From positions 21,246 through 85,245 of the forward strand of contig JBIOJO010000002.1 in assembly GCA_044450965.1 (NCBI GenBank): a DNA stretch of 64,000 nucleotides. Reading direction: 5' to 3'. This DNA is from Elusimicrobiota bacterium. Lineage in GTDB: Bacteria; Elusimicrobiota; Elusimicrobia; UBA1565; UBA9628. Every line of letters begins with the position of its first letter. The first letter of the stretch is position 1. The notes below the pieces were generated by a model. That model ran no database searches. It was given only the letters and a program-made list of their open reading frames with translations, and was not told the origin of the DNA. Shown piece by piece: positions 3,191-57,102 of this stretch. A program made the translations under genes and the position numbers.

Positions 3191-4579
3191 ATGAGGCTGG
3201 TCCTGGCGGCCGTCGCGGCGCTGTTCTTCATGCGGATGCTGGTCCACGTGGACCCGGACGTGTTCTTCCACCTCAAGGAGGGCGGACGCGTCCTGTCCGA
3301 ACATCGCCTGCCCCTGGTCGAGGAGTACTCATTCACTCGCGCCGGCAAGGCGATGGTCGCGACCGAGTGGCTGTCGGGCGCGGCGTTCGCCGCGGCCTTC
3401 CGTCTTGGAGGCTACCCGGCGGTCGTCGTCCTCAACGTCCTCCTGATCGTCGGCGCCCTGCGGCTGATGACGAAGATCTGGGACGAGGAAGGGCCTCCGG
3501 AGAGCGCGCGGGCGCTGTTGACGGCCCTGGCCGCCTTCGCCTTGCTGAGCTTCGCCCAGGCGAAGGTCCAGAACTTCACGTTTCTATTCTTCGCGCTGTA
3601 TTTATTTTGGGTCCGTCGTTGGGAGAAAGGCGCCCGCTGGGCGCCGTGGGCCATGGCGGGGGGGCTGGCGATCTGGGTGAACCTTCACGGCGGATTCACC
3701 TTGGGGTGGGTTCTTCTCGGGGCCGTGTGCGCCCTCGATTATTGGAAGGAAAAGCGCCCGAGCGCGCTCGCTCCGTGGGCGGCGGGCACTTTCGCGTGCT
3801 TCCTTCATCCGAACGGGGCGATGGCGTTCGTTTATCCTATTTGGTTCGTCTTCGCCGCGCCCGCCGCGCGTTCATTGATCGTCGAGTGGCGACCTCTCGG
3901 CTGGGCTTGGTCGTCGGTGCCGTATTTATTCGTGCTGGCGGCGGCGCTGTACTTCCGGATCGACCGGCTTCGTTCGCGGTTCCCGTGGGCGTTCCTGGGA
4001 TTCGTCTTTCTGGTGATGGGTCTGCGCGCCCGCAAGATGATGCCGTATTTCGCGTTGGTCGAATGCGCGGCGGCGGGGTTGGCTCTGGCGGGGACGAAAT
4101 CGAACGGCTCAAGGAAGAAGTGGATGCTGGCGGGGACCGTTACGGTCTTGGCGGCCATCACGGCGGTGGAACTCTCGGAAGCACGGGGCATGACCGCGTA
4201 CGGACCGATCTCCGATTGGGAAAGGGAATTTCCTCGCGAGGCCGTGCAAAAATATATCGCGCGCGACTCCGGCAAACGGATATTTCATGCCTACGAATGG
4301 GGCGGCTATTTGACGTACAAGCTCCCGCCCGGCGATCGTGTGTTTATCGACGGGCGGTTGGACCCTTATTGGACGCTCTTGACCGACTACGAGATCTTGA
4401 TGCACGCCGCCCCCGGGTGGGAGAAGCTGGCGGCGGATTACGGCATCGAGGCCGCGCTCCTGCCTCCGGCCTCGTCCTTGGCCCGCGCGCTGGACCGCGA
4501 TCCGGGCTGGAAGGCCGTCGGCACCGACGGCCGCGCGGCCCTGTACGAGCGCCGCGGCGTCGGACCCAAGAAGGACTAG
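3191..4579 (+). CDS. Polytopic integral membrane protein, function unknown
   Basis: 462 aa with about 10 hydrophobic helices and coding-like GC3. Motif YEWGGYLTYKLPPGDRVFIDGRLDPYW near the C-terminus. No family assigned by eye. Confidence 0.5.
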   Translation: MRLVLAAVAALFFMRMLVHVDPDVFFHLKEGGRVLSEHRLPLVEEYSFTRAGKAMVATEWLSGAAFAAAFRLGGYPAVVVLNVLLIVGALRLMTKIWDEEGPPESARALLTALAAFALLSFAQAKVQNFTFLFFALYLFWVRRWEKGARWAPWAMAGGLAIWVNLHGGFTLGWVLLGAVCALDYWKEKRPSALAPWAAGTFACFLHPNGAMAFVYPIWFVFAAPAARSLIVEWRPLGWAWSSVPYLFVLAAALYFRIDRLRSRFPWAFLGFVFLVMGLRARKMMPYFALVECAAAGLALAGTKSNGSRKKWMLAGTVTVLAAITAVELSEARGMTAYGPISDWEREFPREAVQKYIARDSGKRIFHAYEWGGYLTYKLPPGDRVFIDGRLDPYWTLLTDYEILMHAAPGWEKLAADYGIEAALLPPASSLARALDRDPGWKAVGTDGRAALYERRGVGPKKD

Positions 4580-45617: not shown

Positions 45618-46289
45618 GTGAAGCTGTTCCTTTCCTTCGCCGTCCTGTTCTGCGCGACGCGCGGGGTCGCCGGCCCCATCGGGGCCGTGGACGCGCACGC
45701 GGTCTCCGCCACGGGTTTTCCCGGCGCGTACTTGGAGAGCATCTCCTTGGCGGCCGCGTCCGATCCGTTCTACGGCTCCCGCTTCCTGGACGGGCTCCAG
45801 GTCCATCTGCAGGCGGTGAGCGGCATGACCGCCCAGCCCGCGATCGCCAGCTACCTGGAACAGGCGGCCACCGCCGGTCAGGGCCTGGGCCAATTGAAGG
45901 AGTCCTTGGGCGCGGTGCCCCTTGATCCGCCGAAGGCGGCCGCGCTGCTGATCGCCAACGCGCTGGCGCGTCCCCGGCAGTTCCGCGAAGTGATCGACAA
46001 CCTGGAGACGTTCAAGCCGGGCCTGGGCCGCCACGCGGCCGCCATCCTGCGCGAAACCAAGGGCGAGGGCGACAAGCGCGTCATCGCGGCGCTGCGCGCC
46101 GCGGGGGAAAACAAGCCGCAGGGGAAGATGCTGACCTACGGCCCCGACGGGCGGCTGGACATGCTGTTCGACGGCATCGAGGGCGTCCGCGCCGGCGCCG
46201 CCGAGTCCTCCGTCGTGACCGCCCCGGCGAGCGTGTATGGGCCCGACGGCCGTCCGCGTCCTTCCGGGCTTCTTCCCGCCAAGCCGTAA
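45618..46289 (+). CDS. Exported hypothetical protein (GTG start)
   Basis: Signal MKLFLSFAVLFCATRGVAGP. Coding-like GC3. No homolog recognised. Confidence 0.45.
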   Translation: MKLFLSFAVLFCATRGVAGPIGAVDAHAVSATGFPGAYLESISLAAASDPFYGSRFLDGLQVHLQAVSGMTAQPAIASYLEQAATAGQGLGQLKESLGAVPLDPPKAAALLIANALARPRQFREVIDNLETFKPGLGRHAAAILRETKGEGDKRVIAALRAAGENKPQGKMLTYGPDGRLDMLFDGIEGVRAGAAESSVVTAPASVYGPDGRPRPSGLLPAKP

Positions 46290-46338
46290 GTCCCGGACGG
46301 TTGAGGTCCGCGGGCATATCTGGTATCATGTCCGTCAC

Positions 46339-46413
46339 GGGCCTGTAGCTCAGCTGGGAGAGCGCCTGCATGGCATGCAGGAGGTCAGCGGTTCGATCCC
46401 GCTCAGGTCCACC
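46339..46413 (+). tRNA. tRNA-Ala (anticodon GGC), G3:U70 identity pair, CCA encoded
   Basis: GGGCCTGTAGCTCAGCTGGGAGAGC..., anticodon loop ATGGCAT, T-arm AGCGG-TTCGATC-CCGCT, acceptor 3' CAGGTCC-A-CCA. Confidence 0.85.
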
Positions 46414-46419
46414 AGATTT

Positions 46420-46441
46420 AAAACCCCCGCGAGGGGGTTTT
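46420..46441 (+). terminator. Rho-independent terminator after tRNA-Ala
   Basis: aaaaCCCCCgcgaGGGGGttttt. Confidence 0.6.
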
Positions 46442-46514
46442 TAATTTCAGGGGATCGAACCGCTGAACGACTTTAAAGGCGGTCCGGCCGCGCGTCGTGC
46501 CGCGCGGCCGGGCC

Positions 46515-46541
46515 GCGGTTCGATCCCGCTCAGGTCCACCA
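46515..46541 (+). repeat. 27-nt direct duplicate of the tRNA-Ala 3' end (gcggttcgatcccgctcaggtccacca), 128 bp downstream of the original copy. Att-site-like.
   Basis: Exact match to 46387-46413. Preceded by a perfect 11-bp GC hairpin (ccggccgcgcg-tcgtgc-cgcgcggccgg). An inverted partial T-arm fragment lies at 46448-46466 (ggggatcgaaccgctgaac). Confidence 0.6.
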
Positions 46542-46676
46542 CTTTCGACGCGTTTCTCGACGAGAACCCGGTTCGAGCCTTTCGTTTGGCTTTGACCGGG
46601 TTCTCTGCTTTTGGAGGGGCTATGGTCACAAATTGGTCACAAGCCTTTTTGGCCGGCGCCACAACGAACACAGGCC

Positions 46677-46721: not shown

Positions 46722-47942
46722 ATGATGGGGGGCGACACGAAACTTGGCAGGCGGTTGTTCAATTGTCTGCTGGCGATTGCCGGTGTCAGTTTGTCGTCGC
46801 GGGCCGACGCTGCGGCGGCCTCGCCGCTCTTGGTCGACGAGGCCTGCTTTGCGGTCGCTGAGAGCACTCAAGACTGGCTTCCTAGAGAAGGTGGAAAGGG
46901 ATGTAAGACCTCTCCTCACGGGACAGAGCCCGACGACATTTTTTCATTCGAAGAAGGAGCCAACCTCGAGCGGGGCCAAACGTTCTCAAACTTTGGTTCG
47001 ACACTGGCAGTTGTCGAGGTCGCCGACGATATCCTGGTTCTTGTCGATGGAAAAAAAGTTGCCGAGTTCACGGATCCGCACGGCGTAAGGGAGCCGATTC
47101 AGGCCGCGTTTTTCCATGATCGAAGCTGGGTACTTGAGCACGACGGCACCGTTGTGGTCGACGGCCATGACATCGCCAAAGAAAATGGATATCAAGCGGT
47201 CTTCTTCTATCGGTTTCTCGGCGATCGTCCCTTTTTCCTGTTCGTGGATGCCGCCGGAAAATTTGGGATGTCTTTCGATGGCAAGGTTCTCCCATTCCAT
47301 TACGACGCAATACCTTATGGGCTTTGTTGCAGCAATGGCGTATTCAATCCTCGGCGCAGTCCCAGCGCCGCGGTCTTCTTCGGCCTCAGAGGAAAGACAT
47401 GGTATAGCGTGACGGCACGCGCTCGTCTTCCGACACCTGAAGAAACAACGCAAAAGGTTGAGGGGATCGTCAGTTCCCTCGAGTCCGCGCGGAACTGGTT
47501 TACAGTCGAGGTCAACGGCGAGGGTTGGGCGACCACTCTTAGTAGCCACACGATGATGATGCGTTCAGGCCAGAAACCTATCCCAGCCCGCTTCGACTTG
47601 CTTCATCTTGGGCAAAGGGTCAGTACGATCCGGGCGTCGAACGGCGAATTACTGTGTGTCATTTTTCTTGATCCGGTCGCCGATGGAACAGAGAAGGCCA
47701 TGACTTCTGTACTCGCGGAAGTCGTCTCATACTCAGGCTCAAGCGCGGAATTGACCGTACTCACTTGGGGCTCTGTCCGTCAGAGCTACAGCTTCATCAT
47801 CACTCCCGATACCAAGATTTGGCGCTATAAGGGTTTGCCGATAAAGGTTCCGGTCGAGACGCTCGTCCCGGGTGCGCCTGTGACCGTTGAATATGAAGTT
47901 GAAGGATCCAGCCTCGTGGCACGAACAATCGGCGGGAGGTAG
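46722..47942 (+). CDS. Exported hypothetical protein (406 aa) in a lower-GC segment
   Basis: Signal MMGGDTKLGRRLFNCLLAIAGVSLSSRADA. GC is about 55%, against about 68% in the flanks. Runs of A/T are common here and rare elsewhere in the window. Confidence 0.55.
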   Translation: MMGGDTKLGRRLFNCLLAIAGVSLSSRADAAAASPLLVDEACFAVAESTQDWLPREGGKGCKTSPHGTEPDDIFSFEEGANLERGQTFSNFGSTLAVVEVADDILVLVDGKKVAEFTDPHGVREPIQAAFFHDRSWVLEHDGTVVVDGHDIAKENGYQAVFFYRFLGDRPFFLFVDAAGKFGMSFDGKVLPFHYDAIPYGLCCSNGVFNPRRSPSAAVFFGLRGKTWYSVTARARLPTPEETTQKVEGIVSSLESARNWFTVEVNGEGWATTLSSHTMMMRSGQKPIPARFDLLHLGQRVSTIRASNGELLCVIFLDPVADGTEKAMTSVLAEVVSYSGSSAELTVLTWGSVRQSYSFIITPDTKIWRYKGLPIKVPVETLVPGAPVTVEYEVEGSSLVARTIGGR

Positions 47943-48043
47943 CTCCACTGTCCGAACTCGGCTTCGCTGGTGATTCCCATTGGCCACTATCCGCTAATAG
48001 CAGCTGACGCTACTAGCGATGGTAAAGAACCGTTTCACCGGCC

Positions 48044-49276
48044 CTACAAGCCGGCGAGCATCGTCCACGGAAGAGCGACGATCTTCGTGCCCATCCGAGC
48101 CACCTTTCGGCCGGTATGGACGAGAACGCCCGCGCTCGCCTCGGGGTGGTCCTTGAGGAACGCCTCGAGGCCTCCGCAGTCGGCGTAGCTGGGGGAGTCG
48201 GTCAGCTTGACCTCGACGGCGATGATCTTGCGGCCCCACTCCAACACCAGGTCGACTTCGCTGCCTTTCATGGTGCGCCAATAGTAGAGGCGGAGTTTCG
48301 GCGTGAAGGTCCCGGCGAGAGCCTTCAAGTGATGGAAGATCAGGTTCTCGAAGAGCGGGCCCGTTTCCCGTGAGGCTTTGATCGAAGCCTCGTCGTGCAA
48401 GCCGCCGAGATAGGCTGCCAGAGCCGGATCGATCCAATGAAGCTTGGGAGCCTTGATCAATCGCGTGGTCCGGTTGCGAGCGAACGCGGGGAGTCGGTCG
48501 ATGAGACAGGTCGTCTCAAGGAGGTTCAGGTATCGGTGCACCGTCGCCTGGGAAACGTGGGAGTCGCGGGCGACATTGGTCTGATTGACCACCTGCCCGC
48601 AGCGAAGGGCCAGCACTTCCTTGACCGTGCGGAAGTCGGACAAGGATTCGACCTGCGAGAGTTGCCTGAGGTCGCGTTCAAGATACGTCGCCGAGTAGCC
48701 TTCCCACCAGCGCGTCCGGCTCTCCGCCGTGGGCAAGGAGAGCAGGCCGGGCATGAAGCCCCGCGCGATCGCGGAAATGGGGTCCTGTGCATGCGCCGCG
48801 AGCGTCTCGTCGCGGGGGAACTCCCCTTCGAAGATCGCCTGGACGACAGACGGAGCATTCTTGCGCTGAACCTCGCCGGCCGTCATGGGAAGGAGCGTCA
48901 AGTAGACGGCGCGTCCCGCCAGGCTTTCGGAGACATGCTTCATCAAAAGGAGATTCGCGGAGCCCGACAGGACGAAGTGCATCTTACGCGGATGCTCGTC
49001 CACGGCCTGCTTGACCGCGGAAAGAATGGCGGGAAGGCGCTGGACCTCATCCAGAATCACGTGATCCGCGCCCGCCCAAAGGCCGGCGGGGTCGCGCTCG
49101 CCCTGCCGCAATGCATCCAGGTTGTCGAGGGTGACGTACTTCCAGCGCTTGGTCGGCTCTTCATGCCGGAGGAGGGTGCTCTTGCCCACCTGGCGCGCTC
49201 CGGTGAGGACCACGACCGGGTGTTCGGCGACGGCTCGCGCGAACTGAGGGGCTAGCCAACGGGGGAGAAAATTCAA
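48044..49276 (-). CDS. AAA-family ATPase with a C-terminal DUF4143 domain (ATPase family common in mobile/accessory regions). TTG start proposed.
   Basis: Walker A VVVLTGARQVGKSTLL, Walker B HVILDEVQ. The C-terminal region is typical of the AAA_14 + DUF4143 architecture. The track ORF extends a further 59 codons into an AT-rich promoter region, so the start was trimmed to TTG 49276. Confidence 0.7.
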   Translation of the reverse strand: MNFLPRWLAPQFARAVAEHPVVVLTGARQVGKSTLLRHEEPTKRWKYVTLDNLDALRQGERDPAGLWAGADHVILDEVQRLPAILSAVKQAVDEHPRKMHFVLSGSANLLLMKHVSESLAGRAVYLTLLPMTAGEVQRKNAPSVVQAIFEGEFPRDETLAAHAQDPISAIARGFMPGLLSLPTAESRTRWWEGYSATYLERDLRQLSQVESLSDFRTVKEVLALRCGQVVNQTNVARDSHVSQATVHRYLNLLETTCLIDRLPAFARNRTTRLIKAPKLHWIDPALAAYLGGLHDEASIKASRETGPLFENLIFHHLKALAGTFTPKLRLYYWRTMKGSEVDLVLEWGRKIIAVEVKLTDSPSYADCGGLEAFLKDHPEASAGVLVHTGRKVARMGTKIVALPWTMLAGL

Positions 49277-49440
49277 TTCTTTGTCTGAATCGTTATTATT
49301 CACTATCTGAATTATAAGTCGCAACTGTCCAATTTGCAAGACCTCTGAGGAAACGTCGGGCGGGGTTGGTGACGAAGGCGGTTGAAAGCCCCCGCTGGAG
49401 GAAATCCGACACTTCCGGCGGCTTCCATCGTCTAACGGGC

Positions 49441-49959
49441 ATGAAATCCGCATTGCTCTCCGTCGCCTTGACCGCCGCGCTCTCCGCCTCCGCGGCCGCG
49501 GGCTCCATCCCGAAGTCGAACGTGACGGAGACGCTGGCGTACGCCAGCGCCGAGCAGGCCGCGGTGGAGGCGTTGAAGATCGCGATGCCGCTGAGCGGCA
49601 GCTATGAGAACGGCGGCTTCATCGCCGAACGGGACGGGGAGTATTTCTACTCCGATCCCGTCTCCGCCCACGAAGAGGGACATATCTCCTTCGCCGCCGT
49701 GATACCGGCGGGGGCCCGGCTGGCGGCCATTTATCACACCCATCCCGGCGCTTCCTCCGAATATCTTCTTTTCTCGTCCGACGACGTGAAGGAAGCCCGG
49801 GCCCTGGGCGTGGACTCCTATATCGGGGTGCTGGACGACCATACGGTCCGTCGCTTCGAGCCGGGCCGGACGCCCACGCGGCCGTTCGCGGCGCCGGCGG
49901 AAATGCTTTCCGGCATGGTTTCCGACGGCGTGATCGTCGCGACAGTCGTCAATTTCTAA
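49441..49959 (+). CDS. Exported hypothetical protein (172 aa)
   Basis: Signal MKSALLSVALTAALSASAAAGS. Contains a His-rich YHTHPG segment. Divergent from the ATPase gene across an AT-rich region. Confidence 0.5.
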   Translation: MKSALLSVALTAALSASAAAGSIPKSNVTETLAYASAEQAAVEALKIAMPLSGSYENGGFIAERDGEYFYSDPVSAHEEGHISFAAVIPAGARLAAIYHTHPGASSEYLLFSSDDVKEARALGVDSYIGVLDDHTVRRFEPGRTPTRPFAAPAEMLSGMVSDGVIVATVVNF

Positions 49960-50914: not shown

Positions 50915-56362
<5,448 letters not shown>

Positions 56363-56430
56363 CGCGATACTATGCGCGCCACGGCGGAAATTATCAACGC
56401 CGCGGCTGTCAGGACTGTCAGCGGACGGCG

Positions 56431-57102
56431 TCAGACGATCAGCTGGTAGCCGGCTCTCGTCGTCGAGACGCGGTAGCCTTCGTCGCCCAAGTCCTGGCGA
56501 AGGCGCTGGACCGTCTTCTCGAGGTCGTTCTTCGTGCCTTCGCGGCCCCAGATGTTCTCGACGAGCTCCGGCCACGGCACCTCGGCTTCCCTCTGGATGA
56601 GGTGGAACAGGACTTCGAAGCGCTTCGGCGCCAGGTTGGCGATCATCTTTCCGCCGACCCAGACCGACTTCGATTCCGGCAAAATCCGGAAAACGCCGCG
56701 TGACCACACCGCGAAAGGCGGCTTCGTGCTCCGGCTGGCGAGCAGGCGCTTGATGCGCGGGACCAGCTCCGACGTCTGGATCGGCTTGCGGAGATATTCG
56801 ACCGCTCCGAGGGCCTTGATCTCGCTCTCGAAGAAGTTCGCATCGGCGGGGTAGGCGGTCAAGACGATGATGGGGATGTCGCGCGTGGCCTTGTGCTTCT
56901 TGAGGAGCCTGACGACTTCGACTCCGTTGAGCCCCGGGAGCATCATGTCCAGCAGGATTAGGTCGGGGTTGAGGGAGAGGGCCTTCTCGTGGCCCTCGGG
57001 GCCGGTGAAGGCGTAATGAACCTCGAAGCCCTGATTTCGCAGGACGTGCGAGATCAGATGCTGGAAATCTGGATCGTCTTCGACGCTGAGTATTCTGTGC
57101 AT
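56431..57102 (-). CDS. OmpR-family response regulator (REC + winged-helix DNA-binding domain)
   Basis: [13 protein letters not shown]...[13 protein letters not shown]...LRKPI, then a winged-helix C-terminus ...[25 protein letters not shown]... Confidence 0.8.

Follow-up and report, generated by a model that had tools for sequence, protein, structure and literature searches.

A Duplicated tRNA-Ala(GGC) 3′ End in an Elusimicrobiota Genome: A Probable Integrase Attachment Hotspot with a 127-bp att-Flanked Module

The tRNA-Ala(GGC) Gene and Its Repeated 3′ End

The window, i.e., the whole stretch of 64,000 nucleotides of Elusimicrobiota DNA that was analyzed, carries a tRNA-Ala(GGC) gene followed closely by a second copy of its own 3′ end (Table 1). 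The tRNA gene is 100% identical in L083, L085, L086, L088, L091, L094, L108, and L109, where the L-numbers are labels of loci from related lineages or viral contigs. The repeated sequence is the 27-mer GCGGTTCGATCCCGCTCAGGTCCACCA. A 27-nt duplicate of the tRNA-Ala 3′ end had been predicted and is real, except that the first copy had been placed at 46387–46413, one base off. Copies of the 27-mer were sought throughout the window. Exactly two are found in the 64 kb, and no further site appears even when up to 3 mismatches are included. With the same tolerance, none of 100 dinucleotide shuffles gave a match. Similarity around the two copies reaches 32 nt at 94% identity.

Table 1. Features of the tRNA-Ala(GGC) locus in window coordinates.
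Feature	Position	Strand	Remarks
Promoter-like site of the tRNA gene, TTGAGG-17-TATCAT	46301–46329	+	Hexamers kept upstream of the tRNA in relatives
tRNA-Ala(GGC) gene, encoded CCA	46339–46414	+	ARAGORN call; Rfam tRNA, 62.5 bits
27-mer copy 1, T-arm to CCA of the tRNA, attL-type repeat	46388–46414	+	
127-bp module: terminator, inverted T-arm, spacer, GC hairpin, pseudo 3′ end	46415–46541	+	
termA, predicted bidirectional intrinsic terminator, AAAACCCCC-GCGA-GGGGGTTTT plus T run	46420–46445	strand-neutral	
Inverted copy of variable-loop/T-stem/T-loop part of the tRNA, 16 nt	46451–46466	−	16/16 complementary to 46385–46400
Unpaired 12-nt spacer with GACTWT	46467–46478	+	
GC-rich hairpin P2, arms 46479–46494/46501–46516, 6-nt loop	46479–46516	strand-neutral	
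27-mer copy 2, pseudo 3′ end of the tRNA; candidate attR of the module and attL of the next element	46515–46541	+	
Type-B arm, read as left end of a degenerate integrative element	46551–46648	+	94.9% over 98 nt to L091–93
Perfect palindrome TTCTCGaCGAGAA	46554–46566	strand-neutral	Also directly after the tRNA in L091 and L109
Hairpin then TGCTTTT, terminator-like	46562–46605	+	
Direct repeat TGGTCACAA-AT-TGGTCACAA, 11-bp period, candidate arm-type protein-binding sites	46623–46642	+	
Low-GC (0.53–0.56) ORF, secreted protein, first cargo gene	46722–47942	+	No Pfam or PHROG match
AAA_14/DUF4143 ATPase gene, GC ~0.63	48044–49453	−	

Parts of the 127-bp Module

The segment that ends with the second repeat is a compact module of five parts. 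The terminator, the inverted T-arm fragment, and the perfect 11-bp GC hairpin that had been described between the repeats were all confirmed, and the 100-bp interval between the repeats contains no ORF. The terminator has a CCCCC-GNRA-GGGGG architecture that is present in every module compared. A termA-like terminator also stands behind the distal repeat of the L091 island, which suggests that the ancestral order was tRNA then termA; on this basis, termA is probably the ancestral tRNA terminator.

The inverted T-arm copy is kept in all modules. It was considered as a relic of a convergent tRNA gene and as a PBS-like primer site. The former was rejected as the similarity ends at GGTCAGCGG and the sequence does not allow an anticodon arm to be drawn; the latter was dropped because the fragment is not complementary to the 3′ terminus of the tRNA. 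The conserved bases of the module are mostly derived from the tRNA, GACTWT of the spacer being the only conserved part without a tRNA origin.

P2 consists of 11 perfect pairs, or 16 pairs including one T·G, and has a DNA fold of −24.7 kcal/mol (z −5.3). The P2 sequence differs by lineage and the hairpin is retained, with z values of −5.3 in the window, −3.4 in L085, and −4.1 in L086. It is weaker in the form shared by L081 and L083 (z −1.2); that is, the hairpin is significantly stable in three of the four forms. In the predicted fold of each module, the inverted T-arm and the 5′ half of the pseudo T-arm form an outer stem enclosing P2, and whole-module folds have z values from −2.9 to −5.3. 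In both module copies of L081, mismatches in the outer stem are uncompensated.

The module was also examined for features of known kinds. An Rfam search of the region gave nothing except the tRNA, and no match to rtT was found even at E values up to 10. No sigma-70-like promoter was found inside the module; the one candidate, at TATNAN, has no usable −35 and was ruled out. A tRNA-like minihelix, in which GGGCC would pair with GGTCC (including a G·U), can be formed in the window only and is not conserved. IS200/IS605-type (PATE) and MITE readings were set aside, as target-site duplications are far shorter than a direct repeat of 27–64 nt. The module was also sought at the two other tRNA genes of the window and is present at neither.

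DNA beyond the Second Repeat

The DNA after the second repeat had been described as compositionally different. The drop in GC is real: 0.53–0.56 over 46850–48050 versus 0.69–0.73 upstream. The first recognizable feature past the repeat is the type-B arm. It matches the left end of the island in L091 at 95% identity, whereas the adjacent 223-aa proteins of the two loci are only 60% identical. The arm also aligns with the tRNA-proximal ends of the prophages in L109 and L133, i.e., the ends carrying the 3′ part of the integrase gene, and the alignment takes in the stretch that encodes the integrase C-terminus there. We read the arm as the putative end of a degenerate element of the L109/L133 family, one that is joined at the pseudo end and not at the tRNA.

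Three sequence features lie within the arm. The palindrome TTCTCGaCGAGAA is found in L109 at 1194–1206 and again at 3912–3924, in the divergent region between the S24 repressor gene and the small gene next to it; it suggests a predicted repressor operator beside the attachment site. The terminator-like hairpin, GAGAACCCGGTTCGAGCC...GGCTTTGACCGGGTTCTC, has a second copy after an unrelated gene in L091 (15458–15503) and may be one member of a dispersed hairpin family of terminator-like form; near the loop, its sequence CGGTTCGAGCC looks like a T-arm. A viral scan with GAGAACCCGGTTCGAGCC gave one chance match, in a coding sequence.

The third feature is the TGGTCACAA repeat, of which the window holds two copies against 0.07 expected. 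The repeat is also found in L091 (10905–10924); L109 is without the motif. Its 20-nt pattern recurs in 15 viral contigs (L117–L131) of about eight unrelated families, with GC contents of 0.34–0.58. In the L117 family, the pattern lies 110 nt upstream of an integrase with an Arm-DNA-binding domain; in L128, three copies lie immediately behind the integrase gene; in L121, the pattern follows a tRNA-His 3′ end and a terminator, as it does in the window; and L119 has at least seven tandem copies. The repeat may be a widespread predicted site for arm-type or accessory-protein binding. A literature search for GGTCACAA with 'integrase' returned no relevant paper.

Beyond the two genes of Table 1, further cargo in the window includes a gene for a DUF4329 protein and two-component signalling genes. 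One of these genes, at 50915–56707 (−), encodes a 1930-aa hybrid histidine kinase with nine HAMP/HAMP_2 domains, GAF, HisKA, and HATPase domains, and three receiver domains, and it is surrounded by more response regulators and kinases. Pfam detects no integrase between 43 and 64 kb, and tblastn with the L109 integrase likewise picks up no relic. The 17.5 kb downstream, up to 64000, contain no additional copy of the tRNA end, which leaves the island behind the second repeat without a definable limit.

The Module and Its Surroundings in Relatives

The loci of relatives were retrieved through homologues of the gene upstream of the tRNA (45618–46289), which encodes a 223-aa secreted protein with 56 homologues in metagenomes. 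The upstream gene order is kept in relatives, as follows: binding protein, photolyase, NUDIX, 223-aa gene, tRNA-Ala. By tblastx, matches to relatives are unbroken from about 36 kb to 46453, and nothing downstream is common to the window and any relative. Thus, the tRNA is a synteny breakpoint. A separate scan with the photolyase gene gave best matches of 53–62% identity in other phyla, which do not have the locus in common.

One copy of the module stands in L083 and one in L085, L081 and L086 each have two in tandem, and L107 retains a decayed form. It is missing in L082, L088, L091–93, L094, L108, and L109. In lineages with the module, the 223-aa neighbour protein is 46–81% identical to that of the window. 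The module interior is conserved at least as well as the neighbouring gene, the identities being 93–94% versus 82% for L081 and L083, and 73–84% versus 63–68% for L086. Terminator copies within one genome (L083, L086) are near-identical; between genomes they differ. In L086, the two modules are followed by ordinary surface-polysaccharide genes.

This distribution bears on two earlier expectations. The roughly 100 bp between the repeats had been taken for a collapsed or excised one-off remnant, which does not fit a conserved module found once or twice in tandem across divergent lineages. The competing expectation was a conserved pseudo-tRNA with no link to variable DNA. Its first half stands, since relatives show the same conserved duplicate, but the duplicate always lies beside variable DNA.

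No integrase is associated with the module at any locus examined. Neither the metagenome and viral scans nor INPHARED and PLSDB yielded a full-size element with module-type ends. Scanning a metagenome collection, evidently one without most of the relevant contigs, for the module motif recovered one true locus, L086, plus a chance match in a coding region, L087. In the viral scans, the 25-mer matched only genuine tRNA-Ala genes in the tRNA arrays of large phages, and neither the module motif nor close relatives of the L109 integrase were matched. BLAST of the module and arm against INPHARED phages and PLSDB plasmids returned only tRNA-Ala genes.

In relatives, many short-read contigs stop within the tRNA-Ala gene or immediately ahead of it, as is to be expected at the border between a repeat and strain-variable DNA. 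Fourteen contigs from different samples (L089, L090, L095–L099, L110–L116) end about 100 nt or less past the 223-aa gene, the pattern expected if the tRNA 3′ half is repeated or joined to alternative sequences. The end was read directly for L110 alone among the fourteen; it lies in the tRNA anticodon arm.

Individual relatives show rearrangements of their own. In L085, the closest relative with the module (neighbour protein 81% identical), the whole block at 871–1150, from the promoter through tRNA-Ala, terminator, and module to a second terminator, is inverted with respect to the 223-aa gene, with breakpoints outside the tRNA and outside the repeats. In L107 (1251–1323), the tRNA-Ala is followed by AAA instead of an encoded CCA (GGTCCAAAAATT), with the decayed module behind it. 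A HigB-like toxin and HTH antitoxin pair directly follows the module or modules in L081 (11386–11959), L083 (4130–4701), and L107 (1526–1816). Its promoter, TTGACAA-N-ACACGG-N-ACCTGTTAAAC, is near-identical in the three lineages, and the pair is not in the window. Two loci without the module, L108 (1975–2030) and L094 (10863–10915), have in common the sequence CCCATCACCCC...CCTCTTCCCTCRAGGGAAGAGGGGG slightly downstream of the tRNA, which may be the arm of another element family.

Empty Sites, Islands, and Integrases at the Same tRNA

In L091–93, the CCA of the tRNA is followed by ten divergent bases and then by 98 nt that match the type-B arm of the window. These loci join CCA to post-repeat sequence; their difference from the window is therefore an insertion or deletion of the module with limits exactly at the repeat. 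That is, the empty-site comparison that had been proposed, once run, gives L091–93 as a precise empty site for the 127-bp segment. L082 likewise has an exact empty site where L081 carries two modules and another 5.7 kb. L081 and L082 come from different samples and encode an identical 223-aa protein, and the sequence that adjoins the tRNA in L082 sits 6 kb away in L081. The insertion in L081 comprises two modules, the HigB/HTH pair, four to five more genes, and a 50-nt pseudo-tRNA half, the modules forming its tRNA-proximal end. These exact empty sites support the view that the repeats behave as att-type sequences.

The position of the exchange can be narrowed from L081. The resident tRNA there is intact and has the T-stem variant CTGCGG/CCGCAC. 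The inverted T-arm matches the CAGCGG variant instead, and both it and all three pseudo 3′ ends carry T-stem variants unlike the resident tRNA. If the junctions arose by site-specific exchange, this difference places the crossover in CACCAATCT, at the tip of the tRNA. We infer such a crossover point for the locus. The T-loop was rejected as the crossover point in L081, since the resident tRNA there retains its own T-stem variant.

Integrase genes are found at the tRNA in two relatives. In L109, a 374-aa gene is convergent with the tRNA, its stop codon lying 38 nt past the tRNA. The product matches the phrog_1 integrase (E 6e−24) and, weakly, Pfam Phage_integrase and SAM_5; its homologues are annotated as integrases, and the gene is followed by an S24 repressor gene and small phage-like genes. 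In L133, from another Elusimicrobia MAG, the gene for one of these homologues (E 1e−35) is convergent with tRNA-Ala(GGC), 5 nt from the tRNA end, and adjoins a phage-like replication/recombination module. The two convergent integrases point to a tRNA-Ala(GGC)-specific tyrosine integrase family in the phylum. Alongside these integrase-bearing prophages, repeat-bounded islands without an integrase lie at the tRNA in L081 and L091. The L091 island is 4.1 kb long, carries a copper ATPase gene, and is bounded by the tRNA and by a 45-nt repeat that is a copy of tRNA positions 32–76. The earlier notion of this tRNA as an integration hotspot gains support from the L109 and L133 integrases and from the stop of synteny at the tRNA in every relative.

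Comparison with Known Systems

The Islander principle of tRNA-integrated islands is said to go back to Williams in 2002. Integration leaves a displaced tRNA fragment beside a regenerated tRNA gene (PMC4383910, PMC9897764). The window has an intact tRNA gene and a cognate 3′ fragment in direct orientation on one replicon, and relatives provide precise empty sites. Elements in tandem and, in relatives, tyrosine integrases convergent with the same tRNA are further likenesses to such islands. Unlike in Islander islands, the interval between gene and fragment is only 100 bp and gene-free. There is no integrase between the tRNA and the fragment, and the module would fail both the integrase filter and the length filter.

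In the summary of Pavlovic et al. (2004) given in PMC5704250, CIMEs keep att repeats on both sides and have lost their integration genes. A three-step tandem accretion at att sites is described for CIMEs (PMC5704250), and the ssrA island arrays of Dehalococcoides include integrase-less islands (PMC3146451). The locus resembles both in its flanking att repeats, in the lack of integration genes, and in the highly plastic DNA downstream of the target gene. The module has the 27-mer on each side as candidate attL and attR and, being gene-free, holds no integration or transfer genes. Described CIMEs are kilobases of decayed ICE or IME, whereas the module is 127 bp. Also unlike CIMEs, it has a form conserved across divergent lineages and occurs in tandem copies, and its link to a larger element is putative.

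A third comparison is with the tyrT/tyrV repeats (rtT) of E. coli. Egan and Landy in 1978 and Rossi et al. in 1981 are reported to have described them, with units starting with the last ~19 nt of the tRNA. The tyrT repeats are co-transcribed with the tRNA, no terminator intervening, and yield the RttR RNA. We checked E. coli NC_000913.3, which has three repeats with a 178-bp period, the last overlapping the tyrV 3′ end. As in tyrT/tyrV, the tRNA is followed by units that hold tRNA 3′ terminal bases and can stand in tandem: one unit in the window and two each in L081 and L086. A co-transcribed, processed RNA is not indicated by the sequence, with its intrinsic terminator after the tRNA and its lack of an rtT match. 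The present units differ from those of tyrT in the strong terminator that intervenes and in holding an inverted T-arm and a GC hairpin. Their presence, again unlike at tyrT, correlates with insertions and deletions of islands.

Interpretation

The reading that we favor, with a probability of roughly 0.6, is that of an integrase attachment hotspot with a tiny att-flanked, CIME-like scar, followed by a degenerate island. Tyrosine-integrase elements would use the 3′ tip of tRNA-Ala(GGC) as their attachment site in this Elusimicrobiota lineage. The 127-bp module would be a very small integrase-less element, or scar, between att-type repeats. The left part of the module would provide the present terminator of the tRNA gene, and its right end, the pseudo tRNA 3′ end, would be a second usable att core. 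Its copy number (0, 1, or 2) would shift by recombination between tRNA ends, either site-specific or unequal homologous. A further element would then have joined at the second core, leaving as its recognizable parts the arm of about 100 bp and an integrase-less, partly low-GC cargo. An integrase would have made the module, and events would have run in this order. What is observed is the repeats, their exact presence or absence, the tandem copies, the integrases and islands in relatives, the homology of the arm, and the break in synteny. The fall in GC behind the repeat and the frequent contig breaks at the tRNA speak for this reading as well, and tRNA islands, CIMEs, and accretion follow a like logic in the literature. 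Several points count against this proposal. The window has neither an integrase nor an L109 integrase relic between 43 and 64 kb and no third tRNA end downstream, no module locus has an integrase, and no full-size element with module-type ends turned up. The likeness of terminator copies within a genome fits in-place duplication or concerted evolution better than import, and a 127-bp circle is an unlikely substrate for recombination. Overall, the original prediction is partly supported.

The same near-identity of terminator copies within genomes, set against their difference between genomes, favors a vertically inherited tandem repeat in the tRNA trailer, created and resized by unequal homologous recombination or replication slippage with no integrase and with islands merely nearby. 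E. coli tyrT/tyrV is a precedent, and module likeness partly tracks the hosts, the window being nearest to L085 and L107, and L081 nearest to L083. Such a repeat would also explain a module with no linked integrase that was not found away from tRNA-Ala, be it in the metagenome and viral scans, INPHARED, PLSDB, or at the two other window tRNAs. Slippage leaves unexplained the inverted T-arm copy and how the first second tRNA end arose. The modules of L081 belong to a 6-kb insertion/deletion difference bounded by tRNA ends. The spread is patchy as well: the module is absent in L108, the locus closest to L081, and present in L086, where the neighbour is 46% identical. The terminator between tRNA and repeat, too, departs from tyrT. 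We hold this explanation to be doubtful.

An unlikely extension of the att reading makes the module, 127–140 bp in its various forms, a miniature non-autonomous integrative element composed solely of an att core, a terminator, and an inverted T-arm plus hairpin recognized by a recombinase. It would be moved or amplified in trans by tRNA-Ala-specific integrases, filling a MITE-like role for tyrosine-integrase elements. On this proposal, it could have spread between Elusimicrobiota lineages and could serve as a landing pad that diverts later integrations from the functional end of the tRNA.

The module might also have been kept for a role of its own as a structured RNA or DNA element, be it as a double terminator or insulator that protects the tRNA gene against transcription from the variable DNA, as a decoy att site that draws incoming elements off the functional tRNA end, or as a small tRNA-like RNA. 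The replacement of P2 by other sequences that still form a stable hairpin in three of four lineages would be in keeping with this, as would the T-rich stretches that follow P2 on the minus strand in L081 and L083, the whole-module folds, and an interior conserved as well as or better than the neighbouring gene. A decoy would also account for the next element in the window having joined the pseudo end and not the tRNA. Against a function speak the Rfam matches to the tRNA alone, the lack of a sigma-70-like promoter within the module, the uncompensated outer-stem mismatches in both L081 copies, the decay of the module in L107, and its absence from six relatives. The conserved bases, moreover, are mostly those of the tRNA, with GACTWT the sole exception. 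We regard such a function as quite unlikely.

Finally, the region is hard to assemble, as the frequent breaks of relatives' short-read contigs at the tRNA attest, yet it is highly improbable that the duplication arose as an artefact when a repeat-rich region of this MAG was assembled, because the module interior is unique sequence and the same architecture, with lineage-specific interiors, recurs in five independent assemblies from different pipelines (JGI, ENA, and NCBI).

Features of this kind are well known; the module, however, is of unusually small size (127 bp) and is kept across related genomes. As the phenomenon is a textbook one, the gain is incremental, unless the module proves to be a miniature element. 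The locus nevertheless documents a phylum-level integration hotspot, with a putative cognate integrase family, in the Elusimicrobiota, which are uncultured and whose mobile-element biology is barely described. Its exact att boundaries could be used for mapping islands in Elusimicrobiota MAGs, and it accounts for short-read assembly breaks at tRNA-Ala in this phylum. The module is also a test case for whether att scars persist or spread as elements, and for whether a pseudo-att end protects the functional tRNA.

An Element on the 5′ Side of the tRNA in L133

Islands that carry the 5′ part of their target tRNA, termed 'reversed orientation', make up 159 of 3919 Islander islands (PMC4383910). The likeness to them is found in the relative L133 and not in the window. 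In L133 (10965–13126), the 5′ half of tRNA-Ala is repeated over 38 nt at a site 2.1 kb upstream of the tRNA. This copy delimits a DUF6088/AbiEii toxin-antitoxin element, in which the palindrome GTCTCGACGAGAG is found together with ATGGTCCCA-like repeats in two clusters. The element looks like one of these rare 5′-fragment integrations, with the prophage on the 3′ side of the same tRNA. L133 thus shows tRNA-Ala(GGC) as an apparent target from both sides within the phylum.
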